From Actinomycetota bacterium (GTDB lineage Bacteria > Actinomycetota > CADDZG01 > JAHWKV01): a DNA stretch of 62,507 nt. The translations under genes and the position numbers were made by a program. Shown piece by piece: positions 42,749 through 61,959 of this stretch; position 1 is the stretch's first letter, and the number at the start of each line of letters is the position of its first letter. Location: contig JBBDRQ010000004.1 of the NCBI GenBank assembly GCA_040905365.1, forward strand, positions 1 through 62,507. The letters are read 5' to 3'. A model generated the notes under the pieces. That model saw only the letters and a program-made list of their open reading frames with translations. It had not been told where the DNA came from and did not search any database.

Positions 42749-43003
42749 TTGAGCACCCATCTAGCCGGGCGAAGATCTCCCGAATCCACCCAGCAAGTCC
42801 CAGTTACCCGTATCGAGGTCGTGGATCACCTGGGGTCCGCGTTCTCCAAGACCTCGGCCACCAAATCCGACCTGCTGACCGAAGCCGAGCAAGCCGGGGC
42901 TCGAGGCGAGGTCATCGAGCTGCTCTCGAGACTTCCCGAACGGCGGTTCGGCCGGATAAACGAACTGTGGACCGAGCTGCAAGACGTCCCGATTGAGCCC
43001 TAG
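42749..43003 (+). CDS. DUF2795-like small protein
   Basis: ATKSDLL..A...GA..EVIE.L..LPERRF..INELW. Confidence 0.65.
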   Translation: MSTHLAGRRSPESTQQVPVTRIEVVDHLGSAFSKTSATKSDLLTEAEQAGARGEVIELLSRLPERRFGRINELWTELQDVPIEP

Positions 43004-45726: not shown

Positions 45727-46167
45727 ATGAGCTTTGCGGTTGACGCCAACCTGCTCCTCTACGCCTCCGACCTGTCCAGTCCTCGCCAGCCCAAGGCTTA
45801 CGAGCAGTTGCACCGGCTTGCCCGGGGCCCGGAGATTGTCTACCTGTTCTGGCCCGTGCTCATGGCCTATCTGCGTATATCCACCCACTCGTCGATATTT
45901 TCCGCACCCCTGAGCACGGAGGAGGCGATGGATAACGTGAGAGCGCTCGTGGCTCTTCCGCACGTCCGGTGTCCCGGTGAAAACTCGGGCTTTTGGAAGG
46001 TGTATGAACAAATTGGGGCCGGTCAAAATATTCGAGGCAACCTGGTGCCCGACGCACACATCGTGGCGCTGATGATGCAGCACGGAGTTACCGTCATCTG
46101 GACCGACGATCGGGACTTCAGGCGTTTCGAGGGAATTACCGTCCGCTTTTTGGAGGATCTGGACTGA
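45727..46167 (+). CDS. VapC PIN-domain toxin
   Basis: VDANLLLYA, YLRISTH, GNLVPDAHIVAL, TDDRDFRRF. Confidence 0.92.
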   Translation: MSFAVDANLLLYASDLSSPRQPKAYEQLHRLARGPEIVYLFWPVLMAYLRISTHSSIFSAPLSTEEAMDNVRALVALPHVRCPGENSGFWKVYEQIGAGQNIRGNLVPDAHIVALMMQHGVTVIWTDDRDFRRFEGITVRFLEDLD

Positions 46168-46243
46168 GGCTGCGGGCGCGGGCGATGACAGGACACAGTG
46201 GCAATAGGGTTAATAGCGGCCTACCCTGGTGTATTATAGGTGT

Positions 46244-46447
46244 ATGTCACGCACCAACATCGATCTCGACGACCAGGCCTGCCGGGCCGTCATGGAGCGC
46301 TACCACTTTGCGAGCAAGCGGGAGGCGGTCAACTTCGCCCTCCGCACGGTGGCATCGGAGCCGCTCGGCCTCTCCGAGGCCCGCTCACTGCGCGGCTCCG
46401 GCTGGGAAGGGGACCTGGAGATAATGAGGGCCGGCCGCACCGGGTGA
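46244..46447 (+). CDS. VapB antitoxin (resembles mycobacterial VapB11 type)
   Basis: MSRTNIDLDD...KREAVNFALR...GWEGDL; probably leaderless. Confidence 0.88.
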   Translation: MSRTNIDLDDQACRAVMERYHFASKREAVNFALRTVASEPLGLSEARSLRGSGWEGDLEIMRAGRTG

Positions 46448-46833
46448 TTCTTATCGACACCTCGGCCTGGATCGAATTTCTGCGCGACACCGCAAGCCCG
46501 GTGGCCGATAGGGTGGGCGCTGCATTGGACCAGGCCATCGCCGTTTGTGATCCGGTGCGAATGGAGGTCCTGGCAGGCGCCCGGGACGAGAGCCATCTGA
46601 GCGATATGCGCCGGCTGCTCGCCCGGGCATCCACCATTCCGATCGGGCCGGCCGACTACGAGGAGGCCGCCGTTTTGTATCGCATGTGCCGGCGTAAAGG
46701 CGACACGGTGCGCAAGGTCATCGACTGCCTCATCGCAACGGCTGCCATCAAATCCTCGGCCGCAGTACTGCACCTCGATGCCGACTTCGACATCCTGGCG
46801 AGGCATACGCCTCTGCGCACCGTTGAGCTTTGA
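46444..46833 (+). CDS. VapC PIN-domain toxin (VapC11 type)
   Basis: ILIDTSAWIEFLR, MEVLAGAR, DCLIA, LHLDADFD; GTGA overlap with vapB. Confidence 0.92.
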   Translation: MILIDTSAWIEFLRDTASPVADRVGAALDQAIAVCDPVRMEVLAGARDESHLSDMRRLLARASTIPIGPADYEEAAVLYRMCRRKGDTVRKVIDCLIATAAIKSSAAVLHLDADFDILARHTPLRTVEL

Positions 46834-46971
46834 GAGCCGCTGGGCCACGATGATTCCTGGGGTCTAACCGCTGGTGGTGGTGTGACACTGATCTGGCCCG
46901 GAAGGTGAACCTTGAGGCGGCTGGGGGGCTCGGGAAACTCGGTGCCATCGGGTAGATCGCAGATGAACAGC

Positions 46972-47189
46972 GAGGGGATGCGGTAACCCCGGTAGCGGTA
47001 GCGGGTTATCGCGACCTCGGCGGGCCAGGCGAGCCTCGCGCCGTTGACGCCGTCCCATGTGCGTTGCCAGTACCGCCGCTTGATCTGTTTCCAGGTCAGA
47101 CGCGGATACTTCTTGCGCAGCCAGCGTACGACTCGCCACCACAGGTAGTGGCTGAGGTAGGCGAAGCAGCGCTTGCTCGCGCCGTGGCG
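46972..47189 (-). pseudogene. Group II intron RT/maturase C-terminal (domain X) fragment
   Basis: Manual translation RHGASKRCFAYLSHYLWWRVVRWLRKKYPRLTWKQIKRRY...ITRYRYRGYRIP; no RT core present. Confidence 0.75.
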
Positions 47190-47269
47190 TTTTCTCGGGC
47201 GAGAGCGTCAAACGCATCTGCTCGCGCATGAACTCGGCCGTTTGCTCTTTGAGCGCCCGAATCCCCAGC

Positions 47270-47443
47270 GCGGACAATCAGTGGCGGTCGTTCCAGCGCC
47301 AGCGCGAGAAGTCAACTGCAACCTTCTTCGTCGGCCTTTCTCGTGCAAAGCAGCGCACGATCTTCACGTACTGTGTGTCGCGCGGCGACCGTGACTCGGT
47401 TGATGCGCTCTACCGCCTGCTGGCGACGCCCGGTTCCAAATGA
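47270..47443 (+). pseudogene. C-terminal fragment of a UvrD/SF1 helicase
   Basis: FFVGLSRAKQR resembles SF1 motif VI; no upstream helicase body. Confidence 0.5.
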
Positions 47444-47500
47444 AGGATCGCCCGGACCTCCCAGGGCGAGAGCGACCTACGACATCCGACCGGCCACTGC

Positions 47501-48358
47501 CTACTTGCCGCCCATTCGCGCAAGGAACTCCTCGACGGTCGCCACGGCCTGGCGGCGAAGCCGCGCGGTAGCCTCGTCATCGCCGACCTCTGCGAGAAAC
47601 GAGGCGTAGCCGATTGGCCCGTCCTGAGCGACGTCGGCAAACCGCTCCCGTAGGAGAGTCAGCGCCTCGGCAACCTGCTCTCGGCGGGCGATTGGGCTCT
47701 TGACGGCTTCGGTCGCGGCTTCATCAGGCCCGGCACCGAAGTGCAGCAAGCAGAAGATCAGATCGTACGCGTCCTTGTTTTCGTGGCGATCCTGGAAGGC
47801 GAAGATCTTAAGCACAGTGCAGGAGAACAAATTGGCCACCCTCACCTTCACCCGAGACATGCCACCGTCATCGAGTCGTTCAGCTTCGATCTCGCGCTCG
47901 AGATAGTCCTGTGTGACCAGCTGCGCACCTCGAACGTTGAAGGCACCTAGTCCGCTGCCAGCTCCCTCACCCTTGGGCTTGAAGATGTGGCCGGGGTTGA
48001 CCCGATTGGTCTCGCAGAGGAATTCAACCTGGACCTTCACGCCGTCGACATCTCTTTTCCACCGGAAGCTGTTCTCAGCCCTGAATTGCGCCTTCTTGAG
48101 GTTGTTCTCCAGGGTTCGGTAGGTCTCGGGCGCGGCATCACCCAGAACCAGTCCGATGACGACGTCGATGTCGGTCGTCCCCACGTGGGCTCGGGCCCCC
48201 TCAGGCAGCTCACCTACGATGTAGCGCGGCGCCAAACCGCCGGCCAGGTAGATCCTCTCACTCCATGGGCCGATCTCGCCGAGGAGCGTTACCAGCGCAC
48301 GTTCGCACCGAGCCGTGGTCACCTCGTCGTACTCGGAGTAGTGCTCTCGAGGACTCAA
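47501..48358 (-). CDS. Nucleotidyltransferase toxin, AbiEii/MenT-like (type IV TA)
   Basis: LAGGLAP...GTTDIDV (pol-beta G..DxD), K..AF.DR...KDAYDL. Confidence 0.75.
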   Translation of the reverse strand: MSPREHYSEYDEVTTARCERALVTLLGEIGPWSERIYLAGGLAPRYIVGELPEGARAHVGTTDIDVVIGLVLGDAAPETYRTLENNLKKAQFRAENSFRWKRDVDGVKVQVEFLCETNRVNPGHIFKPKGEGAGSGLGAFNVRGAQLVTQDYLEREIEAERLDDGGMSRVKVRVANLFSCTVLKIFAFQDRHENKDAYDLIFCLLHFGAGPDEAATEAVKSPIARREQVAEALTLLRERFADVAQDGPIGYASFLAEVGDDEATARLRRQAVATVEEFLARMGGK

Positions 48359-49410
48359 AATCCGATCACCTCTCGACGCAGGTTGTCGGCCTGCTCGCGG
48401 CCTCGTCGGGGATCGCGGCGCAGGTCTACGTACGTGCGAAAGAGGTTGGCGAGCGACAATCCACCGCGCTTCTCACGGAAGGCGAGCGGACCGTCGTCCC
48501 TGACCTGAAGGAACACGACGTTGTGGCCATCTGTGACCAAGTCTGCTCGCGTCGCTTGCGCCAGCTCGTGCACTCCGACTCTTGCAGTCACCCAGACCTC
48601 GACGACGGGAACCGCCGTCACGAACGGCGCCACCAAGGTTGCGGCCGCGGCCCCGGTGACCGCGTAATTGATGCCGGCGCGCCCGAGGTTATTGGCAACC
48701 TTTTCGGCAAGCAGCCGTGGCGTTTGCGCCAGCACGTACGCGGTTGTTCTGGTCGGCTGCTCCGTGTTCTCTTCCGTCCAAAGGTCGAGCAGCGCGCCGG
48801 GGTCCGTAAGAGTCCGAGTGAGGTTCGGTCCTGTCCCCTGCGCCGCAACCACACCCTCGTGCTCAAGTCGAGCCAGAACGCGATGCGCGAGCCCAGTAGA
48901 CACACCTGCCTCCTCGACAACATCTTTCACTTGCCACCTGCGCTCGGGATGCAGCAGCAGAGCCTGAGTCACCACGCCGGCTTTCCCCTTGAGGCGAGTG
49001 GGTGGGGTAGTGGTATAAGTCCGCCGCTTTCGGCGTTCATGGCCTTCGACGTGAAAGAGAAGCCCCGGCAACTCCAAGTGCGCGTTCCCGAGCCCATCAA
49101 TGATCCCGATGCCATGGTCCTCCAAAATCCGGCGGGTCTCCTCTGTGGTCTCCTCTGCAATGAGTAGGTGGCGCCTCTCAGGGTGCGCCTCGGCGTAATG
49201 AACGAGCTGCCAGGCAGTGGCGGCGTTCGCCCGCCGCTTGAAATCCACAACGACCTCTTCCTGGCGGTCGGCGAAGGTCAGGATGGCGTCGACCCCCCGG
49301 TCGGTGCCGCCAGAGTCGGCGTCCACGGTCAGCCACGGGATCTCCCGTAGGATGCGGAGCGCCTCCGTCTCCAGCGAGCCCCTAATATTCACAAGCTCAC
49401 GCTTATTCAC
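48355..49410 (-). CDS. AbiEi-like antitoxin / wHTH regulator (type IV TA)
   Basis: Central wHTH (AGVSTGLAHRVL..L), LLDLW, YAVTG..AA, C-terminal YVDL..DPRRGREQA; 4-nt overlap with the toxin gene. Confidence 0.75.
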   Translation of the reverse strand: MNKRELVNIRGSLETEALRILREIPWLTVDADSGGTDRGVDAILTFADRQEEVVVDFKRRANAATAWQLVHYAEAHPERRHLLIAEETTEETRRILEDHGIGIIDGLGNAHLELPGLLFHVEGHERRKRRTYTTTPPTRLKGKAGVVTQALLLHPERRWQVKDVVEEAGVSTGLAHRVLARLEHEGVVAAQGTGPNLTRTLTDPGALLDLWTEENTEQPTRTTAYVLAQTPRLLAEKVANNLGRAGINYAVTGAAAATLVAPFVTAVPVVEVWVTARVGVHELAQATRADLVTDGHNVVFLQVRDDGPLAFREKRGGLSLANLFRTYVDLRRDPRRGREQADNLRREVIGF

Positions 49411-49440
49411 AGCGTCTATGAATATAGACGATTCTGTGAA
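49406..49440. promoter_or_regulatory. Nested inverted repeat at the antitoxin start (putative autoregulatory operator)
   Basis: ttcacag-cgtctat-gaat-atagacg-att-ctgtgaa. Confidence 0.6.
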
Positions 49441-49660
49441 CCTTATCTAGTTCACTTGGCAAGTCCTGAGTCACCCTCTCAGGAGTCGACAACGCCGCCG
49501 CCGGCGGCGTCCACCGCCCTGCGGGCGACTGACCCGAGACTCACGGGGGGCATGACGGCATGCACGACTGGGCCGACACCCCCGGACCACCACGGCGTTC
49601 TGATCACACACCGGCCGCCGAGAGCGACTGGGTTCTGGACACAGCGGCAAGACGAGACCG

Positions 49661-49840
49661 GCCGTTGGTGTTCTCGTTGCTGCCGCGCTGCCAGGGACTG
49701 TTGGGATCACAGAAGTACACGGCCACCCCGGTGTCGATGGTGGACAGGGCGTGGCGGGCCATCTCCTTGCCCTGGTCCCAGATCAGCGATTGGCTCAGCT
49801 GCTCAGGCAGCCGGAGGATGTGGTCACGTAGCGCGGCAGC
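49661..49840 (-). mobile_element. IS30 family transposase fragment
   Basis: SLIWDQGKEMARH...VYFCDPNSPWQRGSNENTNG. Confidence 0.9.
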
Positions 49841-50187
49841 GGCGGGCTCCGCGGGCCTGTCCCTTTCCCATCCTGCGAGAATCTTTGCCGCCGCGGAATG
49901 CCCACCGTACTTACCGGGTTTATCCAGGAGATTCACCCCACAACGGCTTCGAACCAGTCACCAATACGAAGTCGGTAGGCAGACCGGCCATGGATTGTTG
50001 CGCCGGGTCGGCTCCACCGGCTAGAAGGGGGGGAGGTTCCGCGATGGTCCGTCAACCGCCGCCTGTCTGGTCGAACAATCAGGGCCGGACCGGTCCAGCC
50101 AGCGTCGACGCATCCATTACCCGCCGGGCAGTAGCTCCCGGGCTCCTTGCACATGCTGCGGCGTCCACGGGCAGGGGGCTGCGCCAT

Positions 50188-50571
50188 ATGCGCTATCTGG
50201 TAGAGCTGTCAGTACTTCTGGTAATCGTGCGGGTGCGCCTGAGCCGGCGGGGATTCCAGCCAACCGTGGCTTGGTCCACGACGTTGAACCCAGCGCGCCA
50301 CTGCCATGAGGCTGGGGTGCACAGGACCATTGAGCTGGCGATGACAGATGCTCAGCGGGTGTTCCGCTGGCATCCCGTGGCCAACAAGTGCCTCGAGCAG
50401 TCCCTGGTCCTCTGCAAGTTTCTCGCCCGGCGCGGAATCAGGGCCGAGTTGATTGTCGCAGTGCGGAAGTACCCGTTCGGGTCCCATGCGTGGGCTCGCT
50501 GGGGTGAGGTGCTCTTGACCGACCCTCCCGCCCAGGATCCCGAGCATTTCCACGTGATCGCACGATTCTAG
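50188..50571 (+). CDS. Lasso peptide leader peptidase (B2, transglutaminase-like)
   Basis: KCLEQSL, PFGSHAW, LTD catalytic Cys-His-Asp; ATG 50188 lies within ORF 49456-50571. Confidence 0.9.
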   Translation: MRYLVELSVLLVIVRVRLSRRGFQPTVAWSTTLNPARHCHEAGVHRTIELAMTDAQRVFRWHPVANKCLEQSLVLCKFLARRGIRAELIVAVRKYPFGSHAWARWGEVLLTDPPAQDPEHFHVIARF

Positions 50572-50580
50572 GAGGCACAC

Positions 50581-52602
50581 GTGAGTGGAATCGCCGTCGT
50601 CTACAACCGTGTCGATCCTTCTATCGATCTGGCCTTGCTCGAACGGGTCGTCAAGGACCTTGCCTGGCGAGGTCCTGACCAGGCAGGCACGTGGCACGAT
50701 GACCACGTCGGACTCGGCGCGACGCAACTCTGGACGACCACCGAGGACTGGGGTTCCCGGCAGCCGGTCGTCGGCCACGACGCCAGGAGTGTCCTGGCCT
50801 TCGACGGGCGGTTGGACAACCGGCCGGAACTGCAGGCGGAGCTCGGTCTGGCTGCTGGTGGGAAGGAGACACCCAGCGACGCGGATCTGGCGCTTGCGGC
50901 GTATGGCCGATGGCGCGAGTCATTCCCACAACAACTGATGGGACCATTCTCGGTCGCCGTTTGGGACCGTGCGCAGCACCGGCTGGTCTGCGCCCGCGAT
51001 CCCATCGGCCAAAGACCCTTCTACTACCACATGAGCCGGGGGTGCTTCTACGCGGCCTCGACCATCGAGGCGCTCCGGAGGGTTCCCGGGGTCAGTGCCA
51101 CCTTGAACAACGACTACATCTGGGACTTTCTGTGCACCGGTGGGATGGCCGGCTCGCTCGACCCGGAAGAGACACCGTTCACGGATGTCCGCCGCCTGCC
51201 GCCCGGCCACACGCTGGTGGTCACGCGGAACGGACTGCGACTCGAGCGTTACTGGGAGCCCTGGAGCCTCCCGCCGCTGCGCTACCGTGACGATCGAGAG
51301 TATGCCGAGCACTTCCGCGAACTCTTCACCGAGGTGGTGCGTGCGCACAGCCGGGCCGCCGGACCTGTCTGCGCCACCCTGTCCGGCGGTCTGGACTCCT
51401 CTTCGATCGTATGCGTGATCCGCCAACTGGAGCGGTCAGGCCGGCTCACCGGCGAGCCGCTTCAGACGTTGACGCTGGCTTGGGAGGATGCCGCAGGGTA
51501 CAGAGCGGGCTATGACGAGCGCCAGTACGTCGACGAGGTGGTCGCCCAGTACCCGGGACCAGCGCACTACCTCCGCGAGCAGCGCCTCGACACCTTCGAC
51601 GCCTCTGCCGACACGACCCCTCCCCGCGACGAGCCGTTCAGTCTGGTGGGCCCCCTTTGGTCCGCACTCGCCGACAAGACCCACGCGCTGGGCAGCCGGG
51701 TGCTGGTTGCCGGCAGCGGCGGCGACCACCTGCTGACCGGCAACCGCTTCGCCATCACCGACCTGTTGAGGCGGGGCGCGCTCGGGGAGCTGGCCGAGCA
51801 ACTGCGCGATCTGGCCCACCGGCAGGGCCTGCCGTACCCGGCGCTGGTCGCCGGCTACCTGATCTCTCCCCACCTCCCCCGCCATCTCGGCGCCGCGCTG
51901 CTGGCAGCGCTGACCAAAGACACCGACCGCAGGCGCATCGACTCCTTGTACTACTGGCGGGTCCCCGACTGGGTGCAGGACCGCTCCAGCCACAAGCAGC
52001 GTGGCCGTCAGCGCCACAAGCTGCTGCGTCGCCAGTTCTCTTCCCTGGCTGCGCAGAAGGACTACGAGCAGCTCGGCGTCGGCTCGCAGGACCACCGGCT
52101 CGTGTCCCTGCCGAACGTGGCGCTCGCAAGCGGAGTCGACCTGCGCAACCCGTTCTTCGACACTCGACTCGTCAACTACTGTCTCCGCCTCCCCGCCGAC
52201 CTCAAGTACCGCGACGGGATCACAAAGGTCGCGCTGCGACTGGCGCTGCAGGACATCCTGCCCCCGCAGATCGCCAACCGTCGCGGCAAGACTGCATACA
52301 CGTTCGCTGCAACCGATTACGTCAAGCGCAACTGGGCATCCATCCAGGACACCTACCGGCAGTCGGAGGCGCAGCGGCGGGGCTACGTGAACGCGTCCCT
52401 CCTTCTGGACGAGATCGCACAGCTCCAGCAGGGCGGCAGCGGCGCACTCGACCTGCCCTCGCTACTAGCCGCAATCGGTCTCGAGGACTGGCTGCGACGA
52501 GTCGAGCGCTCACCCGTCCGCGAGACGTGCGGTCAGCACTCCACGGTCATCAACACCGATCGTGACCCTACGAGCATGAAAGGAGGTGACAACCGTGCCT
52601 AA
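50581..52602 (+). CDS. Lasso peptide cyclase (C, asparagine synthetase-like)
   Basis: MSGI (Ntn Cys replaced by Ser), RGPD, RLDNR, ARDPIG.RP, LSGGLDSS, GSGGD; GGAGG RBS; flanked by B2, precursors and RRE. Confidence 0.92.
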   Translation: MSGIAVVYNRVDPSIDLALLERVVKDLAWRGPDQAGTWHDDHVGLGATQLWTTTEDWGSRQPVVGHDARSVLAFDGRLDNRPELQAELGLAAGGKETPSDADLALAAYGRWRESFPQQLMGPFSVAVWDRAQHRLVCARDPIGQRPFYYHMSRGCFYAASTIEALRRVPGVSATLNNDYIWDFLCTGGMAGSLDPEETPFTDVRRLPPGHTLVVTRNGLRLERYWEPWSLPPLRYRDDREYAEHFRELFTEVVRAHSRAAGPVCATLSGGLDSSSIVCVIRQLERSGRLTGEPLQTLTLAWEDAAGYRAGYDERQYVDEVVAQYPGPAHYLREQRLDTFDASADTTPPRDEPFSLVGPLWSALADKTHALGSRVLVAGSGGDHLLTGNRFAITDLLRRGALGELAEQLRDLAHRQGLPYPALVAGYLISPHLPRHLGAALLAALTKDTDRRRIDSLYYWRVPDWVQDRSSHKQRGRQRHKLLRRQFSSLAAQKDYEQLGVGSQDHRLVSLPNVALASGVDLRNPFFDTRLVNYCLRLPADLKYRDGITKVALRLALQDILPPQIANRRGKTAYTFAATDYVKRNWASIQDTYRQSEAQRRGYVNASLLLDEIAQLQQGGSGALDLPSLLAAIGLEDWLRRVERSPVRETCGQHSTVINTDRDPTSMKGGDNRA

Positions 52603-52768
52603 CCCATCACTGTCCTCATCCGGCACCGCCCGGAAGCCATACCACGGCGTGACTCTCGTGCGATTCGGCAATGCGGCCCGTATCACGCTCGGCTGCGATT
52701 GCGGCGAGGACATCGATTGCGACTGTAATTTCCGCAACGACGACGACGGATCGGATGGCCTCGGCTAA
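52595..52768 (+). CDS. Lasso peptide precursor A1 (57 aa; core GCDCGEDIDCDCNFRNDDDGSDGLG)
   Basis: AGGAGG RBS, GTG 52595; leader Y-17, L-12, G-8, T-2; core Gly1, Asp9. Confidence 0.88.
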   Translation: MPNPSLSSSGTARKPYHGVTLVRFGNAARITLGCDCGEDIDCDCNFRNDDDGSDGLG

Positions 52769-52802
52769 CCGCTTGTCAGGCTAGCAGTTTCTTCCGATCG
52801 AG

Positions 52803-52858
52803 TAGCCCACGGCAGGGTCACGGGAGCGCTTGTGAATACATTCATCAGTGCTCCCGTG
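52803..52858 (+). promoter_or_regulatory. Conserved box plus hairpin after precursor A1
   Basis: tagcccacggcagggt, then stem cacgggagcgct / agtgctcccgtg. Confidence 0.7.
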
Positions 52859-52901
52859 CACCCAGCCATTGACCCTATATACACGAAAGGCGGTGAAACG
52901 G

Positions 52902-53078
52902 ATGAATGATTCCACAGATGCCTTGGTCGACGCTGCCAAGCGTCCGTATCACGGCACGACGCTGGCGAGGTTCGGCGACGCTGTACAGGTCACGCTGGGT
53001 TGCACTACCGGCGACACCCTGGACGCTGACCCCCAGGGGGTCCAGTGGCACGACGACAACGGGGACGGCTTGTACTGA
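52902..53078 (+). CDS. Lasso peptide precursor A2 (58 aa; core GCTTGDTLDADPQGVQWHDDNGDGLY)
   Basis: GAAAGG RBS; leader PYHGTTLARFGDAVQVTL paralogous to A1; core Gly1, Asp9. Confidence 0.88.
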   Translation: MNDSTDALVDAAKRPYHGTTLARFGDAVQVTLGCTTGDTLDADPQGVQWHDDNGDGLY

Positions 53079-53112
53079 CCGCTATGCAGGTTGGCAATCG
53101 TCCGTTGGCCCC

Positions 53113-53167
53113 TAGCCCACGGCAGGGTAGCGGGAGCCCTTTTTAGTGTATTGCATAGCGCTCCCGC
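53113..53167 (+). promoter_or_regulatory. Conserved box plus hairpin after precursor A2
   Basis: Same 16-mer tagcccacggcagggt, then stem gcgggagc / gctcccgc. Confidence 0.7.
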
Positions 53168-53198
53168 GGCCCGGTGCGGCCCGGTCGGAAGGAATTGC

Positions 53199-53468
53199 AT
53201 GTCATCAACGATGTACAACACAAGCGAACAGGTATTCATAACCGAATTCGACGGTGAAGCAGTGCTCTTCCACCTCGTCTCTGGTGCGTACTACGGCTTG
53301 GACGAGGTGGGCACCGACGTGTGGCGCATGCTGGATGAGCGCAAGCCGGTCGAGGAGATCGTGCGCGCTCTGCTCGGGCGCTACGACGTCAACGAGTCCC
53401 GGTTGCGTTCGGATGTGCACCGGCTGCTTGCTGACCTCCACCAGGAAAACCTGGTCGAGACGACCTGA
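53199..53468 (+). CDS. RiPP recognition element (PqqD family, lasso B1)
   Basis: 89 aa; DGEAVLF...G.YYGLDEVG..VW.ML...YDV...L..DV..LL..L...LV. Confidence 0.92.
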   Translation: MSSTMYNTSEQVFITEFDGEAVLFHLVSGAYYGLDEVGTDVWRMLDERKPVEEIVRALLGRYDVNESRLRSDVHRLLADLHQENLVETT

Positions 53469-53476
53469 GCGATCAG

Positions 53477-54475
53477 ATGCCCAGCTCGCAAGCGACGCTC
53501 CGGCGCACCGTCGCGCAGCTCGAGGGTCGCCGGTTGACCTACGCCGTGGCGACGGTCGTGGCAATAGGTGAAGCGGCCGCGATGCTGACCTTCCCCTTGG
53601 TGCAACAGTCGTTCTACGATCGGGTCCTCATCGGCGGCGAGACCGAGATCCTGGCGCCTGTATTGCTGGCGATGCTCGCCCTCGTGGTGACGATGCTTGC
53701 AGCGAAGGCGGTCTCTGGGTACCTGTACGCGTCGGTCGGCGAGGCTGTCAAGGTCGACGTCCGGTCACAGCTGACGCAGGCAGAGCTCTCACGGTCGTTG
53801 ACCGCCGGGGACCGGGAGGCGACCGGGGAGCTGGTGTCGGTGGCCACCAACGACGTCGCCAAGATGGGCGAGCTGTATCGCCGAGTCTTTGGACCCGGAG
53901 TAGTCCAGGTGCTGAGGCTCGTCGGCACACTCGCAGTGCTCGCCGTCATCGACCCGCGGCTGCTGGTCGTCGCGCTCCCTCTGCTGGCGCTCTATGCGGC
54001 CGTGCCGATCGGGGTGACGCCAGGACTGCGACGGACAGGGGAGATGGTCCAGCAACGAACGGGCCAGCTCATCACGACCCTGCAGGAGGGGTTCTCGGGC
54101 ACTCGGGACATCAAAGCGTTCGGGCGGGTGGGCTGGGGGGTGGCACGCCAACGTACGTCCGGCGACGCGCTGCGGGAGGCGCAGCTTCGCCTGACCCGCT
54201 TGGAGCTGCTTTCTTCGGGGAGCTTCATCGCCTACTGGCTGAGCGTGGTAGGCATCAGCTGGTACGGAGCCCTGGCGGTCTCGGAGAACCGGCTGACCGT
54301 AGGGGGACTCCTCGCGCTCCTGTTGTACTTCGGTCAACTGCAACAACCGGTGAGTTTCCTCGTGAAGCTGAACAACCGCTTGCAGGTCGGCCTCGCCGCT
54401 TCTGCGCGGGTGTTCGCACACCTCGACCAGCCGCCCGCCGCACACACAGCAGCCGGTGGCCGCCCCCCCCGGTAA
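53477..54475 (+). CDS. ABC exporter transmembrane domain (lasso D, N-terminal half)
   Basis: Six-TM ABC_membrane pattern, TGELVS...ND, EGFSG.RDIKAFG, LTVGGL; ends at TAA in a G/C tract. Confidence 0.85.
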   Translation: MPSSQATLRRTVAQLEGRRLTYAVATVVAIGEAAAMLTFPLVQQSFYDRVLIGGETEILAPVLLAMLALVVTMLAAKAVSGYLYASVGEAVKVDVRSQLTQAELSRSLTAGDREATGELVSVATNDVAKMGELYRRVFGPGVVQVLRLVGTLAVLAVIDPRLLVVALPLLALYAAVPIGVTPGLRRTGEMVQQRTGQLITTLQEGFSGTRDIKAFGRVGWGVARQRTSGDALREAQLRLTRLELLSSGSFIAYWLSVVGISWYGALAVSENRLTVGGLLALLLYFGQLQQPVSFLVKLNNRLQVGLAASARVFAHLDQPPAAHTAAGGRPPR

Positions 54476-54511
54476 CGCGGGGGGCCCCCGCCCCGCCCCC
54501 CGTCAGCAGCC

Positions 54512-55351
54512 GTGGCAGTGCAAGACCTGTCCTTTTGCTACCCTGGCAACAGCGCCTGCCTGCAGAACGTGTGCTTGCGCGCGAGCGCCGGGGAGTTCGT
54601 CGCGATCGTCGGCGAGACAGGCTCGGGCAAGACCACGCTGCTCAACGCTATCCTCGGCTTCGTCGACACCGACCAGGGACATGTGCTGATCGACGGCCAC
54701 GAGCTGGCCGACCTGAGCGACGACGACCTACGCCGGCAGGTCTCGGTGAGCTCGTCAGACGCGGTCCTGTTCGACATGACCATCGCCGATAACATCCGCT
54801 TCGGCAACCTCGACGCCTCCGACGACGAGGTCCGGTCCGCCGCCCATGCCAGCGCCGCCGACGAGTTCATCGAATCCCTACCGGAGGGCTACCAGACCAA
54901 AATCGGCGAACGCGGTGGACGCCTGTCCACCGGCCAACGCCAGCGCATCGCCTTGGCCCGCGCGCTCATCCGCCAGCTCTCGATCCTTCTACTAGACGAA
55001 GCCACCGCCGGCCTGGACGGACCCACGGAGCGGTTGGTCATGGACCGCCTCCTAAGCCGGCCGGACCGCCCGACTATCGTGATGGTCACCCATCGCCTGT
55101 ACACACTCAAGCAGGCCGATCGGATCTACGTCCTGGAGGACGGCCGCATCACCGAGCAGGGAAACCACCACACATTGCTCCAACAGGGTGGCCTGTACCA
55201 TCGGCTCTGCCGGAACCAAGGATTCGCCTCGGACCCGCCCCCAGCTCCTGGCCAATCGCGGCGAGCCCCGTTGAGCCTGCCTGGGCAGGAGCGACAACAG
55301 CGTCTCCACCCCGGAGACGAGGGTATCGGTGGCGTCCCGTCCTCGGTATAA
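54512..55351 (+). CDS. ABC exporter ATPase domain (lasso D, C-terminal half)
   Basis: GETGSGKTT, LSTGQRQR, LLDEATAGLD, VTHRL; same frame as the TMD. Confidence 0.88.
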   Translation: MAVQDLSFCYPGNSACLQNVCLRASAGEFVAIVGETGSGKTTLLNAILGFVDTDQGHVLIDGHELADLSDDDLRRQVSVSSSDAVLFDMTIADNIRFGNLDASDDEVRSAAHASAADEFIESLPEGYQTKIGERGGRLSTGQRQRIALARALIRQLSILLLDEATAGLDGPTERLVMDRLLSRPDRPTIVMVTHRLYTLKQADRIYVLEDGRITEQGNHHTLLQQGGLYHRLCRNQGFASDPPPAPGQSRRAPLSLPGQERQQRLHPGDEGIGGVPSSV

Positions 55352-55384
55352 AAGCGTCACGGGCGCAGGTCTGTGTAATATTGC

Positions 55385-55523
55385 GTGACGCCGCAGACTC
55401 TGTTGCGCTGGCACCGTGAGCTGATCGCACGCAAATAGACGTTTCGTAAAGCCGCCAGGCCGGGTCGGCGGTCTCTCGCTCCTTTCGTTGTTTCAGCTGT
55501 TGTTCGTCTCGCCCAGGACCCGA
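55385..55523 (+). pseudogene. Transposase (rve integrase-core type) N-terminal remnant
   Basis: VTPQTLLRWHRELIARK*TF...PGR...VVRLAQDP with an internal stop. Confidence 0.65.
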
Positions 55524-55743
55524 AGCTCCAGATCGACCGAATCCGGGATCACGCCTCGGAGCACAGCTTCAACCCGGCTTCTCAGGTCCGACGAAACAAC
55601 CCCTCATACCTCACACAATGTTTATATCTAACATTTACGTGAGGTATAGCTTACTCATGAGGTATCACCTTTTTGCTCCCTTTCGAGCACCGCGTCGACC
55701 AAGAACTGGGTGAAACTGGCCCGAAATATGCCTAATTTCATCG

Positions 55744-55815
55744 TGGGCGCTACTGGGATCGAACCAGTGACCCCTGCCTTGTAAGGGCAGTGCTCTCCCG
55801 CTGAGCTAAGCGCCC
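55744..55815 (-). tRNA. tRNA-Val (anticodon TAC), CCA not encoded
   Basis: gggcgct acceptor stem, tagctcagcgggagagc D arm, ctgcc-cTTACaa-ggcag anticodon arm, ggttcgatcc T arm. Confidence 0.96.
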
Positions 55816-55868
55816 GGAACTAACGCATTGTCGCAGGCCGCCGGCCGGGCGTCCACGCCCCGCGCGAG

Positions 55869-56219
55869 CTACCTGTCTTTCAGTACCGGCGGCGGCGTAA
55901 GGGTCACACCACCGTCGAGGTTGTTCTCGGCTCCGGCCAAGAAGTCCCTCACGGCTTCCAGGTCTACCGTTTCGTGCGTCTGGGGGTACCCCTCGATCCG
56001 GCGCCTCGCCTTGCGAAACTGCAAACCGGCTCCCTTGAGATTACCCTTTTCGTGGTGCAGAAGCCCTACGGCTACGTGAATCAGGGCCTGCAGGAGGTCG
56101 CGCTCGGACTCGGGCGCGTCGATCCAGTGCTCTTCCAGGGTTTCGTGCGCCATGAAGTAGTCGCCCTCGGCCAATAGACGCGCACCCTCAACCAGGTAGG
56201 GAGAAACCTCTGGGTTCAT
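55869..56219 (-). CDS. DUF309 domain protein
   Basis: YFMAHETLEEHW, LQALIHVAVGLLH...GN..GA. Confidence 0.9.
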   Translation of the reverse strand: MNPEVSPYLVEGARLLAEGDYFMAHETLEEHWIDAPESERDLLQALIHVAVGLLHHEKGNLKGAGLQFRKARRRIEGYPQTHETVDLEAVRDFLAGAENNLDGGVTLTPPPVLKDR

Positions 56220-56233
56220 GCCCTGGAGCCTAA

Positions 56234-56716
56234 TTAATCCTCGGCCTTGGGCCTAACGGGAGAGGGTCTTTCCGGCGGAAAGAAATCGGAGCCGGACTGG
56301 CCTTCACCGGCGTCCCTCTCGTAGCAGTTACGACCGGCATCATGTTCGATCTCCGAGAAACCCCGATACCCCTCGGCGTCGTCGATGGAGGCGTTGAAAA
56401 CTGCGCAGACCTCGTACTGGGAGTCGGACAGTTTCGTGTATTCGAAAAATTCTCCGGTCTCCGGGTCCCGGCGGGGGTCGAAGGAGCGACTGTACCGATT
56501 GATCGAATCCAGCTCCTCGAGTGAATCGGGCAGGCTGCCCTCGTTGATCCGGTGCTGCGACAACTCGAAGTGCAACTCTGTGAGGTCCTGACGCCTTTGG
56601 TCGTCGGCTCGAAGCTCCCGAGCGGTGTTAGGGGAGCCGACTGCGAACAAACCCGCAATAACTGCGGCAGCAACCAGGACCGTTGCCACAATGCCTACCA
56701 GCTTCGAGTTTTTCAT
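56234..56716 (-). CDS. Membrane-anchored exported protein associated with DUF5671
   Basis: TM, then GSP..AR..R.D..R..DL, LP.SL, DPETG..FEY, YEVCA.F. Confidence 0.7.
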   Translation of the reverse strand: MKNSKLVGIVATVLVAAAVIAGLFAVGSPNTARELRADDQRRQDLTELHFELSQHRINEGSLPDSLEELDSINRYSRSFDPRRDPETGEFFEYTKLSDSQYEVCAVFNASIDDAEGYRGFSEIEHDAGRNCYERDAGEGQSGSDFFPPERPSPVRPKAED

Positions 56717-57309
56717 GTCTGAGGCTCCGGTTGTTTGGATGCAGCAACGCTCGCCTCTTCATCTGCGGGGAAGGAGTCGCTGCGGTAATAAAGAAATACC
56801 AGCGCCGCCATCAGCATCACTCCGGCCGCCCGGACGGCAAAACGGGAGGTCAGATCGCCGCTGAGGTAGCTGTTGATAACGATCATTAGGTCTACCAGCA
56901 CTGTCACCATTACGACGAACAAGTTGAGATAAGCAAACACCTGGCGAAGGCCCGCGGTTTCTGGAGACCGCCTTTTCCTGGTGTAGATGCTCATGTAGAC
57001 GAAGACCGGAAAGGCCACCACCGCCATGGAGATCCCCGCCCGCATAGGACCCTCCCGCACCCCCTGAGCACCCGCGTCCGGAAACTCCGGGAACCAGTAA
57101 TCGGCCAAACCCCATATGAGCACCAGTACGCCCACTACCGTCAAGTAGAGGGTGGCCGTGATGAGCAGGTGGGTCAGCACGTCCCGAGCCACCACCGTCC
57201 CAGACCCCGAGCCCTTCTTCTTCTTGTTCACCAGCAGGACCACACCGGCGACTATGCCGGCGATGATAAGCACCTGTATCAGCAGTGCGATAAGACCGAG
57301 CGCCGCCAC
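56713..57309 (-). CDS. DUF5671-like membrane protein
   Basis: ADYWFP, RAGISMAVVAFPVF, YLNLFV, GDLTSRF; paralog of the next gene. Confidence 0.7.
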   Translation of the reverse strand: MAALGLIALLIQVLIIAGIVAGVVLLVNKKKKGSGSGTVVARDVLTHLLITATLYLTVVGVLVLIWGLADYWFPEFPDAGAQGVREGPMRAGISMAVVAFPVFVYMSIYTRKRRSPETAGLRQVFAYLNLFVVMVTVLVDLMIVINSYLSGDLTSRFAVRAAGVMLMAALVFLYYRSDSFPADEEASVAASKQPEPQT

Positions 57310-59981: not shown

Positions 59982-60796
59982 GTAAGACCCAGCACTGTTG
60001 CAGCGATACCCCCGGCCGCTATGCAGTACACGGCAAAACCGATCAGACCCCGTCGCTGCAGGAATGCGACCATTCCCGCTATCGATAAGTAACTTGAGAT
60101 TCCGGCGGATACAAAGCCGGCCGCCAATGCCCCCGCGCCTACTGAATCGCCGGACAGTTGCGGTACCTGGAAGACCGCGGTACCGATAAGTATGGGAATG
60201 GCCATCAGGAACGAGAATCTAGCTGCCTGGGCGCGGGAAAGCCCGGCCAGCATTGCTGCCGATATGGTCGAGCCGGATCGTGAGATTCCCGGCAGAATCG
60301 CAGCCGCCTGGGCCAGTCCCACACCCAGCGCAGCACGCCACGAAACCTGCTCTGTTAACCCCTTCACCCCGGTGAGAACCTCCTTACGATCAGAAGCATC
60401 TTTACGTCGGGTGAGGGCTTCGGCCCCTATGAGAATTACACCGGTGCCTATCAGCTGGATCGCAACCTGGTACGGGTTGCCGAAAACCTGCTCGAACCAC
60501 TCCTCGAAGACCACGCCGATCACCGCAGCCGGCAGCGTGGCCAGCGCCAGCAGCCACACAAACCGGCGTTGTGGACCGGACCGCACCATCCCGAACGCGG
60601 TCTCGATCAGCTCCCGCCGAAAGTAGACCACCAGCGCAAGCAGGGTGGCAGCGTGCAGAAGTACGAAAAAAGGCAGGCTGGGCTGATCCCAGCCGGCAAA
60701 CTCAGGGACCAGGACCAGGTGACCGGAGGAGGAGATCGGAAGAAACTCAGTCAGTCCTTGAACGATCCCTAGGACAATCGCTTCAAAAATGCTCAA
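59978..60796 (-). CDS. uppP: Undecaprenyl-diphosphatase (BacA)
   Basis: GIVQGLTEFLPISSSGHL, PGISRSGSTI, AARFSFL. Confidence 0.96.
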   Translation of the reverse strand: MSIFEAIVLGIVQGLTEFLPISSSGHLVLVPEFAGWDQPSLPFFVLLHAATLLALVVYFRRELIETAFGMVRSGPQRRFVWLLALATLPAAVIGVVFEEWFEQVFGNPYQVAIQLIGTGVILIGAEALTRRKDASDRKEVLTGVKGLTEQVSWRAALGVGLAQAAAILPGISRSGSTISAAMLAGLSRAQAARFSFLMAIPILIGTAVFQVPQLSGDSVGAGALAAGFVSAGISSYLSIAGMVAFLQRRGLIGFAVYCIAAGGIAATVLGLT

Positions 60797-60906
60797 TTAG
60801 TACCCTATCGGTTAACCGGCCCTCGAGGGGGACTTCACCAAGACGCCCCCCTAGATCCGCAGAGTCCGGACAACAGTGGCAGATACTGCCCGCTGAGGAG
60901 GTGCGC

Positions 60907-61959
60907 TTGGCCGTATCTGTCACCAAGACCTACGAGGGTCACCGGCTGGTTGGTGAGGGGCCAATAACCGATTTGGCCAACTCCTACCTTGCCCATTTGA
61001 CTGCCCGCGGCTTCTCCGCGGCAACGGTCAGAGGATACGCCTTCGACCTGCTGAACTTCAGTCGATTCCTGCATGGTAGGGACATCGACCCGGGTAATGT
61101 AGCTCCCAGCGACCTGTTCGATTGGCTTCAGTGGCAGTCCGAGATGCCTGCCCACCCCAACGACAACAACGTCGTCAGCATTCAAGCCAACCGAGGCGCC
61201 TCGCCGGCCACTATGAACCGGCGCGTGGCGGCGGTCAGGGGCCTGTTCGAGTACAGCGTGATCACCGGATTCAGAGACGACAACCCGGTTCCACCTGGAC
61301 GAAGAGCTACCGGACTGCGGGCTCGCCCCCGCGGCACGCTGGGTCACCTCGACACCGGCAAGACCCGCTCCGGGGGCCGTCTGGTCAAGCAGCATCAGCG
61401 CCTTCCCGAGAGCATCGATCTCGCCGATGTCGCAGACTTCGTCGCGGATCTTGCAACCTATCGCGACCGGGCGATGGCTCTGGCGATGGTGCTGGGCGGT
61501 CTGCGGGCCGCCGAAGTGCGTGCCCTCCGGCTCGCTGACGTGGACATGGGGCTGCGCCGTTTACGGGTGACCGGCAAAGGCGGACGGCAACGGGTGGTCC
61601 CGGTGGACCGGCCCTTCTTCGCTGAGCTGGCCGGCTACCTGCACTCCGAGCGCCCCAGCGGCCTTGCGACACCGGAGTGCTTTGTGGTGCTTCGAGGACC
61701 AACCAGGGGCCAGGCAATGACCGAGGCCGGGATGCGCAAGATCTTTCGGGTTCACCGGCAGCGCTCAGGTGCTACCCGAGTCCGTCCCCACCGCCTGCGC
61801 CACACCTACGGGACCGAGCTGGCCGCCGCCGGCATCGATCTGCTGGTGCTCAAGGACCTGATGGGCCACGCCCATTCCGAGACCACGGCAATGTACGTCC
61901 ATCTGTCCCCTGAGCATCTCGCGGCCGAGTACGCCCGGGCCCATGAGGCCTTGCAATGA
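60907..61959 (+). CDS. Tyrosine recombinase/integrase
   Basis: SAM-like N-terminal domain, GLRAAEV, GKGG, HRLRHT, LMGH, Y; GAGGAGG RBS before TTG 60907. Confidence 0.93.
   Translation: MAVSVTKTYEGHRLVGEGPITDLANSYLAHLTARGFSAATVRGYAFDLLNFSRFLHGRDIDPGNVAPSDLFDWLQWQSEMPAHPNDNNVVSIQANRGASPATMNRRVAAVRGLFEYSVITGFRDDNPVPPGRRATGLRARPRGTLGHLDTGKTRSGGRLVKQHQRLPESIDLADVADFVADLATYRDRAMALAMVLGGLRAAEVRALRLADVDMGLRRLRVTGKGGRQRVVPVDRPFFAELAGYLHSERPSGLATPECFVVLRGPTRGQAMTEAGMRKIFRVHRQRSGATRVRPHRLRHTYGTELAAAGIDLLVLKDLMGHAHSETTAMYVHLSPEHLAAEYARAHEALQ

Follow-up and report, generated by a model that had tools for sequence, protein, structure and literature searches.

Positions 50188-55351 of contig JBBDRQ010000004.1 carry six co-oriented and tightly packed units on the + strand, in the order B2-C-A1-A2-B1-D, which likely constitute a genuine lasso-peptide biosynthetic cluster with two precursor cores, each closed by a Gly1-Asp9 ring. 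The window that we analyzed is this whole contig, 62,507 bases in length, from the 2.2-Mb genome (83 contigs, 92% complete) of an actinobacterium. The cluster is a new example of a well-known system; what is new is a pair of very acidic predicted peptides, one of which has an unusual pattern of four cysteines. The biosynthetic machinery appears canonical and of ordinary logic, and the cores do not. An earlier note on this DNA had proposed a lasso gene set with a split B1/B2 and two paralogous precursors; each part was found on the + strand where it had been placed, and the proposal passed the family, motif, and alignment tests that we ran. The features of the cluster are as follows.

50188..50571, + strand: B2, 127 aa, putative leader peptidase with a transglutaminase-like fold (PF13471, NF033537); candidate catalytic residues Cys68, His100, and Asp112
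50581..52602, + strand: C, 673 aa, putative ATP-dependent macrolactam synthetase, asparagine synthetase homologue (PF00733); GTG start with AGGAGG 5 nt upstream
52595..52768, + strand: A1 precursor (protein P0121), 57 aa; GTG start with AAGGAGGTGA 5 nt upstream
52595-52690, + strand: A1 leader, 32 aa
52691-52765, + strand: A1 core, 25 aa, GCDCGEDIDCDCNFRNDDDGSDGLG
52819..52858, + strand: stem-loop after A1 (inverted repeat I3), 19-nt arms, 84% complementary
52902..53078, + strand: A2 precursor (protein P0122), 58 aa; ATG start
52902-52997, + strand: A2 leader, 32 aa
52998-53075, + strand: A2 core, 26 aa, GCTTGDTLDADPQGVQWHDDNGDGLY
53125..53172, + strand: weaker stem-loop after A2 (inverted repeat I5), a duplicate of the one after A1
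53199..53468, + strand: B1, 89 aa, stand-alone PqqD-type recognition element (PF05402)
53477..55351, + strand: D, ABC exporter (PF00664 and PF00005), as two open reading frames (ORFs) sharing one frame
53477..54475, + strand: membrane half of D, 332 aa, ending at an in-frame TAA (PF00664, 103.8 bits)
54473..54475, + strand: the in-frame TAA, in the exporter linker and within a stretch of C/G runs
54512..55351, + strand: ATPase half of D, 279 aa if GTG 54512 is the start (PF00005, 110.3 bits)

A1 begins within the last 8 nt of C, and the spacers between the other neighbors measure 9 nt (B2-C), 133 nt (A1-A2), 120 nt (A2-B1), and 8 nt (B1-D).

Enzymes of the cluster and the proposed pathway

Four of the proteins were assigned to their families, and the three Pfam models that the earlier note had named as checks all matched as it anticipated. 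B2 matched PF13471 at 69.9 bits (cut-off 26, E 2.3e-19) and also passed the lasso-specific model NF033537, at 73.2 bits against a cut-off of 33. When B2 was aligned with 27 B2-like stretches taken from other lasso loci, Cys68 and His100 were conserved in 27/27 rows, and the position of residue 112 held Asp in 20/27 and Glu in 5/27 (acidic in 25/27). Family score and residue conservation together place B2 among the Cys-His-Asp peptidases with a transglutaminase-like fold. The catalytic candidates are spaced as in McjB, with 32 from Cys to His and 12 from His to Asp. A sequence search of the Protein Data Bank (PDB) matched no solved structure to B2.

C matched PF00733 at 154.9 bits, with GATase_7 and GATase_6 matched as well. 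Its top-scoring NCBIfam model was the lasso cyclase NF033535 (382.3 bits), with the asparagine synthase model TIGR01536 at 228.7 bits, and its named homologues, P0056 and P0096, carry lasso cyclase annotation. The protein begins M-S-G and has SGGLDSS at residues 268-274. When C and the 16 homologues nearest to it were aligned, 17/17 members of this cyclase clade had the same M1, S2, and S268-G-G-L-D-S273; the whole clade therefore lacks the glutaminase Cys and keeps the ATP loop. This is the makeup of an asparagine-synthetase-like lactam synthetase with an SGGxDS loop.

B1 matched PF05402 at 71.3 bits (cut-off 23.4) and belongs with the PqqD-like recognition elements of RiPPs (peptides that ribosomes make and that are modified after translation); the nearest solved structure is TbiB1 (5v1u/5v1v, E 2.7e-13). 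A predicted complex of B1 with A1 scored 0.51, and the best of three controls scored 0.02. Predictions agreed in at least 95% of contacts between runs, with a partner predicted local distance difference test (pLDDT) value of at least 56. The mark used for this score is passed by 58/80 solved complexes and 2/110 mismatched pairs, and at scores of 0.60 or below it is passed by 7/80 solved complexes and both of the passing mismatches. The prediction lends weak support to leader binding by B1, and the pass may reflect likeness only, because the TbiB1-leader complex (5v1v) has already been solved.

The proposed mechanism would follow the established lasso pathway as outlined in part of a review (PMC9266682). 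B1 would bind the leader of A1 or A2 (Y-17...L-12...G-8...T-2), and B2, as a Cys-His-Asp peptidase, would cleave between Leu-1 and Gly1. C would then adenylate the side chain of Asp9 and couple it to the Gly1 amine, such that a nine-residue ring closes around the prefolded tail, and D would export the product if D is intact. The expected products, 25 and 26 residues long, are both very acidic; their calculated monoisotopic masses after loss of water are 2590.86 Da for A1 (2586.83 Da if two disulfides form) and 2731.11 Da for A2. By analogy with known systems, we infer the cleavage site, ring acceptor, threading, cysteine state, export, and biological activity. The claim that no kinase, isopeptidase, or oxidoreductase gene accompanies the cluster was borne out in the ORFs scanned within ~7 kb upstream and ~1 kb downstream, and no tailoring enzyme family was found among those ORFs.

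Two precursors and their family

A1 and A2 matched no Pfam family and are 50% identical to each other over 46 aa (E 6e-11). They sit in a ~310-nt tandem duplication (repeats D1 and D2) in which the hairpin downstream and the ribosome-binding region were copied as well, and the genome contains no further copy (next best match E 0.02). The region after A1, 52769-52880, folds at -49.1 kcal/mol (z -5.71), which 0/200 shuffles equaled, and its stem-loop may act as a partial terminator or a transcript stabilizer. The corresponding region after A2, 53079-53198, folded no better than shuffles (z 0.70); a terminator-like scan match lies at 53124-53140 and is followed by TTTTT. Two tandem lasso precursors with YEAP...FGTVE.ITLG leaders also lie beside a cyclase in another Actinomycetota genome (locus L116, G049:C17, ~431-716, - strand), so paired precursors recur in the phylum.

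Both leaders are 32 aa long and carry Y-17, L-12, G-8, and T-2, followed by Gly1. These positions and Asp9 can be read directly in A1 and A2, in agreement with the earlier note, which missed that Pro-14 has been substituted by Val or Thr. YxxPxL at -17 to -12 and Thr-2 are recognition elements according to the sections of PMC10368454 drawn on here, and both are present in A1 and A2 apart from the replaced Pro-14. Peptides of the KPYxxPxLxxxGxxxxxTxG type occur at most 450 nt downstream of the cyclase in 12/95 other loci (weak, consistent tblastn matches), which fixes the register of the A1 and A2 leaders.

Close relatives of these precursors are very rare. When a three-row profile was run against 5.8 billion proteins in a word-indexed search, A1, A2, and P0123 were the only peptides returned. 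An HMM scan of 1.84 billion representative proteins gave seven matches at E <=0.001, among them A1, A2, P0123, P0124, and the distant P0127; P0125 and P0126, two long repeat proteins that are rich in G/D/T and lack CxC, were rejected as spurious. The C-terminal 46 residues (~674-719) of P0004 make up a fifth close member, whose core reads GCTCGSGLDCDC... P0004 is a 719-aa metagenome protein, a cyclase homologue at 53% identity whose ORF continues without a stop into the precursor, and it is either a natural cyclase-precursor fusion or an artefact of a frameshift or of gene calling. We refer to A1, A2, P0123, P0124, and the P0004 tail as the five close members. The homology of A1 and A2, together with the recurrence of the leader and core start in independent metagenome peptides, is more than chance.

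All five close cores share Gly1, Cys2, Gly5, Asp9, and Asp11. Three of them (A1, P0123, and the P0004 tail) have the pattern G-C-x-C-G-x3-D-C-D-C, and the other two, A2 and P0124, have D-A-D at positions 9-11 in place of D-C-D. The A1 core contains four cysteines (Cys2, Cys4, Cys10, and Cys12) and nine acidic residues in 25; the A2 core contains one (Cys2) and six acidic residues in 26. The calcium-loop motif Dx[DN]xDG was tried on the acidic tails and rejected: A2 fits, A1 needs a gap, and P0123, P0124, and P0004 are without it. The small residue at position 1 and the acidic residue at 7-9 are Gly1 and Asp9 in every close core. Lasso rings close on residues 7-9 (PMC9266682, in the portions used here), and Asp9 is the sole acidic residue in that range that is common to the five, which makes a ring between Gly1 and Asp9 the preferred reading. 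The ring pair named in the earlier note is retained in all five close members.

None of the five core strings appears in the searchable literature, which agrees with the earlier claim that the two peptides match no characterized lasso peptide; predicted-precursor lists in paper supplements lie outside that search and may already include the family without its having been remarked on. Likewise, the literature searched contains no cysteine-rich or metal-binding lasso peptide of the G-C-x-C-G-x3-D-C-D-C type, and the pattern appears to fit none of the disulfide classes in the available parts of the review PMC9266682. In A1, Cys2, Cys4, Cys10, and Cys12 are arranged symmetrically about the isopeptide junction and would most likely form ring-to-loop disulfides after export. 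We raise only tentatively, as a possibility that we consider doubtful, that A1-type cores represent a natural lasso type outside classes I-V, with either a very short loop locked by two ring-to-loop disulfides or a tetrathiolate metal site completed by the invariant Asp11 and the acidic tail.

Exporter, genomic setting, and alternative explanations

On the MsbA model TIGR02203, which has 572 positions, the membrane half of D matches 3-319 and the ATPase half 334-567. In 3/3 other lasso loci examined, a single ORF of 602-617 aa encodes both halves, joined by a linker of similar length, and D is therefore normally fused. The exporter of the earlier note is present and co-oriented with the other genes on the + strand, but in this assembly it is not a single open frame; the TAA at 54473-54475 had been missed. 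A public contig of the likely source run spans 4715 bases over 49752-54466 with zero differences, the next begins at 54479 with five differing letters, and none covers the 12 bases 54467-54478. The TAA lies inside this gap between independent contigs and so lacks independent support; it may be either a genuine nonsense mutation or an error of the assembly. A second sequencing run of the same study contains identical cluster fragments.

Two further observations concern the same region. The ~40 C-terminal residues of the ATPase half (55230-55351) extend past the ABC models, which end at about residue 241 of 279, and the 3' end of D may have been remodeled next to the transposase-like scrap listed below. 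Summed contig depth reaches 868 at 49617-49833 and 144 at 54608-55041, compared with ~11 for the cluster. Many other organisms in these samples carry IS30-like and ABC-ATPase stretches that are at least 90% alike, and the jumps do not indicate a higher copy number here.

The features flanking the cluster are as follows.

46240-46833: PIN-domain gene
46989-47207, - strand: group II intron maturase fragment (PF08388, 27.7 bits, cut-off 23)
47501-49410, - strand: overlapping gene pair, a 285-aa protein with a weak AbiEii nucleotidyltransferase match (PF08843, 22.8 bits) and a 351-aa partner without a clear family
49604..49936, - strand: IS30-family transposase fragment, left boundary (NF033563, 73.7 bits, cut-off 80, model positions 168-238 of 267; weak rve match)
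55390-55440, + strand: short frame ending in TPQTLLRWHRELIARK and then a stop
55743..55815, - strand: tRNA-Val (anticodon TAC), right boundary, 3' end facing the cluster (ARAGORN; Rfam RF00005, 70 bits)

An Rfam scan over 46000-57000 found only the tRNA and no group II intron RNA. The two overlapping genes could encode a toxin-antitoxin system of type IV or one for abortive infection; PADLOC gave one weak match among the genes upstream of the cluster. The frame at 55390-55440, too short for a family search, resembles the N-terminal part of some actinobacterial transposases. Past the tRNA lies a block of DUF309, membrane protein, rhodanese, and ArsR genes that is conserved in relatives: DUF309 occurs in 16/20 other genomes (a set that includes the unpublished G021 and G022), synteny over the block holds for all six loci compared, and in one relative (L107) tRNA-Val lies 26 nt from the DUF309 gene. 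None of 11 left-flank genes matched the same six loci, and the ADP-ribosylglycohydrolase gene at 42993 was found in 2/20 relatives. This setting appears to fit a variable region beside a tRNA gene. However, a search of 30000-56000 for att-like direct repeats of the tRNA gave no match. A 462-aa tyrosine recombinase is encoded at 60571-61959 (+ strand), ~4.8 kb from tRNA-Val and on the conserved side; its residues 271-459 are XerC/XerD-like, and its long N-terminal part is unmatched.

A tmRNA (134.6 bits) in the genome identifies the host as a bacterium. Its SufB has named relatives at 73-87% identity, and the nearest of these all carry the label of Actinomycetota or Actinobacteria metagenome-assembled genomes (MAGs); the sequencing runs that contain the sequence are sediment metagenomes. 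Of 760 genome windows, 16% have a GC content at least as high as the 65.7% of the cluster, whose GC at third codon positions (GC3) is like that of housekeeping genes; base composition thus gives no sign of recent transfer. The closest homologues of the cyclase, P0002-P0017, range from 68% down to 33% identity and come from metagenome sources only. No close homologue was present in 40 related genomes, a set that includes the unpublished G021, G027, and G030 (best match 31% identity, E 1.9e-37), or in 400 sampled genomes of the phylum (six matches at E <=1e-45, best 33%). A pattern-based scan of genome contigs with a single protein found eight loci at 25-34% identity, none of the close clade, and a scan of metagenome contigs found at least 80 loci, of which those listed all have a cyclase identity of 41% or less. 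The neighborhood comparison was made with contigs from outside the close cyclase clade P0002-P0017.

Several observations weigh against a genuine lasso cluster with the proposed ring. A promoter scan found no sigma-70-like promoter upstream of B2, and there is no RNA run among the sequencing runs listed as containing the sequence. C falls short of the curated cut-off of NF033535 (382.3 against 525 bits), and B1, although closest to the lasso-specific PqqD models NF033536 and NF033530, scores under both cut-offs (64.5 against 80 and 49 against 70 bits). B2 has Arg at residue 104, where 26/27 homologues have Glu, and residues 107 and 111 also differ from the majority in the 27-row alignment. The usual Pro-14 of YxxPxL is Val in A1, Thr in A2, and one or the other in all five close members. 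The TAA and 12 further codons part D into two same-frame ORFs. Finally, A1 and P0124 carry Asp7 too, such that a seven-residue ring would be possible for those two.

Some of these points could be explained if the cluster were a decaying remnant, with an exporter broken by a nonsense codon, dead mobile elements around it, and no lasso peptide made or exported. The TAA, the lack of a Shine-Dalgarno sequence at GTG 54512, the single-ORF exporters of the three other lasso loci examined, and the three unusual positions in B2 would all be expected of such a remnant, as would the nearby IS30 fragment, group II intron maturase fragment, and transposase-like scrap at ~55390-55440. However, the frames of B2, C, A1, A2, and B1 are open, closely spaced, and preceded by good ribosome-binding sites, the stop falls exactly where independent contigs break and differ, which makes an assembly error possible, and the fragments in the second run are identical. 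On balance, we regard decay as unlikely. Less probable still is a different ring, in which A1 closes on Asp7 or A1 and A2 use different acceptors. Rings of seven to nine residues are known (PMC9266682, from the same portions), and Asp7 stands beside Asp9 in A1 and is shared by P0124, but positions 7 and 8 are free of acidic residues in A2, P0123, and the P0004 tail, and a single cyclase must serve both A1 and A2, with Asp9 invariant in the five close members.

A non-lasso reading, with C as a conventional asparagine synthetase or amidotransferase and the small ORFs as chance frames, we consider extremely unlikely. C does match TIGR01536 as well as TIGR03108 (184.9 bits), and amidotransferases were its only solved relatives in the PDB sequence search. 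Against this, Ser2 removes the glutaminase nucleophile in 17/17 clade members, the lasso cyclase model scores highest for C, B2 passes a lasso-specific equivalog model, and the small ORFs are conserved in other metagenomes and bear the lasso leader motif.

A lasso cluster that makes two Gly1-Asp9 peptides is therefore the reading that we carry forward. Lasso peptides are valued as stable scaffolds and antibiotics, yet structures have been solved for only ~50 of them (PMC12214591), and by October 2025 a single lasso peptide had been obtained directly from a metagenome (PMC12670498). The present host is an uncultured, small-genome actinobacterium, and the cysteine pattern appears to lie outside the current class scheme. 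The set is compact (four enzyme or chaperone genes plus an exporter) and hence practical to refactor for expression. Should the cysteines form ring-loop bridges or a metal site, the known lasso topologies or functions would widen, and a tetrathiolate site would make the product a lasso metallophore.

Comparison with known lasso and RiPP systems

The Tbi system, presumably from Thermobaculum terrenum, likewise has a stand-alone PqqD-type B1, and the B1 described here aligns with TbiB1 over residues 8-87. A split B1/B2 is common among lasso clusters in the account given in parts of PMC9266682. Compared with Tbi, the leaders here have Val or Thr for the usual Pro-14, the cores are unrelated, and B2 lies before C and B1 after the precursors. 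Lasso clusters from soil and sediment metagenomes and MAGs share the B2-C-A order (a B2-like stretch ends at most ~175 nt upstream of the cyclase in 20/95) and have ABC exporters of the same type as D. Their cyclases, however, are only 25-41% identical to C, Pro-14 is retained in their leaders, and their cores show no relation to those described here.

Class I lasso peptides (siamycin/MS-271, aborycin, sviceucin, and humidimycin) have four core cysteines, as A1 does, and a nine-residue ring closed on Asp9. In the text of the review excerpts (PMC9266682), class I is defined by two disulfides and requires Cys at position 1, its disulfides are thought to arise without dedicated enzymes, and its characterized members all come from Streptomyces. 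Here, by contrast, position 1 is Gly in all family members, which places them outside class I; the A1 cysteines at 2, 4, 10, and 12 lie near the ring junction, and A2 has one Cys. Class III has one ring-tail disulfide and class IV one tail-tail disulfide (PMC9266682, same excerpts), and class V has a second macrocycle from Lys to the C terminus (PMC13178200, in part). A1 has no Lys, and class V is thus excluded by sequence for A1. With its single Cys, A2 can form no internal disulfide and would fall in class II, in which bulky residues hold the tail without a disulfide.

A precedent for reading CxC...CxC as a metal site is provided by the cysimiditides, RiPPs in which a Zn ion is bound by four conserved cysteines (bioRxiv 10.1101/2024.10.02.616296, in the sections used). 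They belong to another RiPP class, with a methyltransferase and an aspartimide and no lasso fold, and their motif is CXXCXGXG twice, not CxC, with no sequence relation to the cores described here. Closer in geometry are the engineered stlassin variants Val2Cys/Ala11Cys and Val3Cys/Pro12Cys, which have ring-to-loop disulfides and a fold outside the traditional four classes; within the excerpts of PMC9266682, such disulfides are described solely for these variants. Cys2 and Cys4 with Cys10 and Cys12 would allow the same geometry in A1-type cores. The stlassin variants are laboratory mutants with one bridge, whereas the pattern here, known from sequence, is natural, occurs in 3/5 close cores, and would make two bridges possible.

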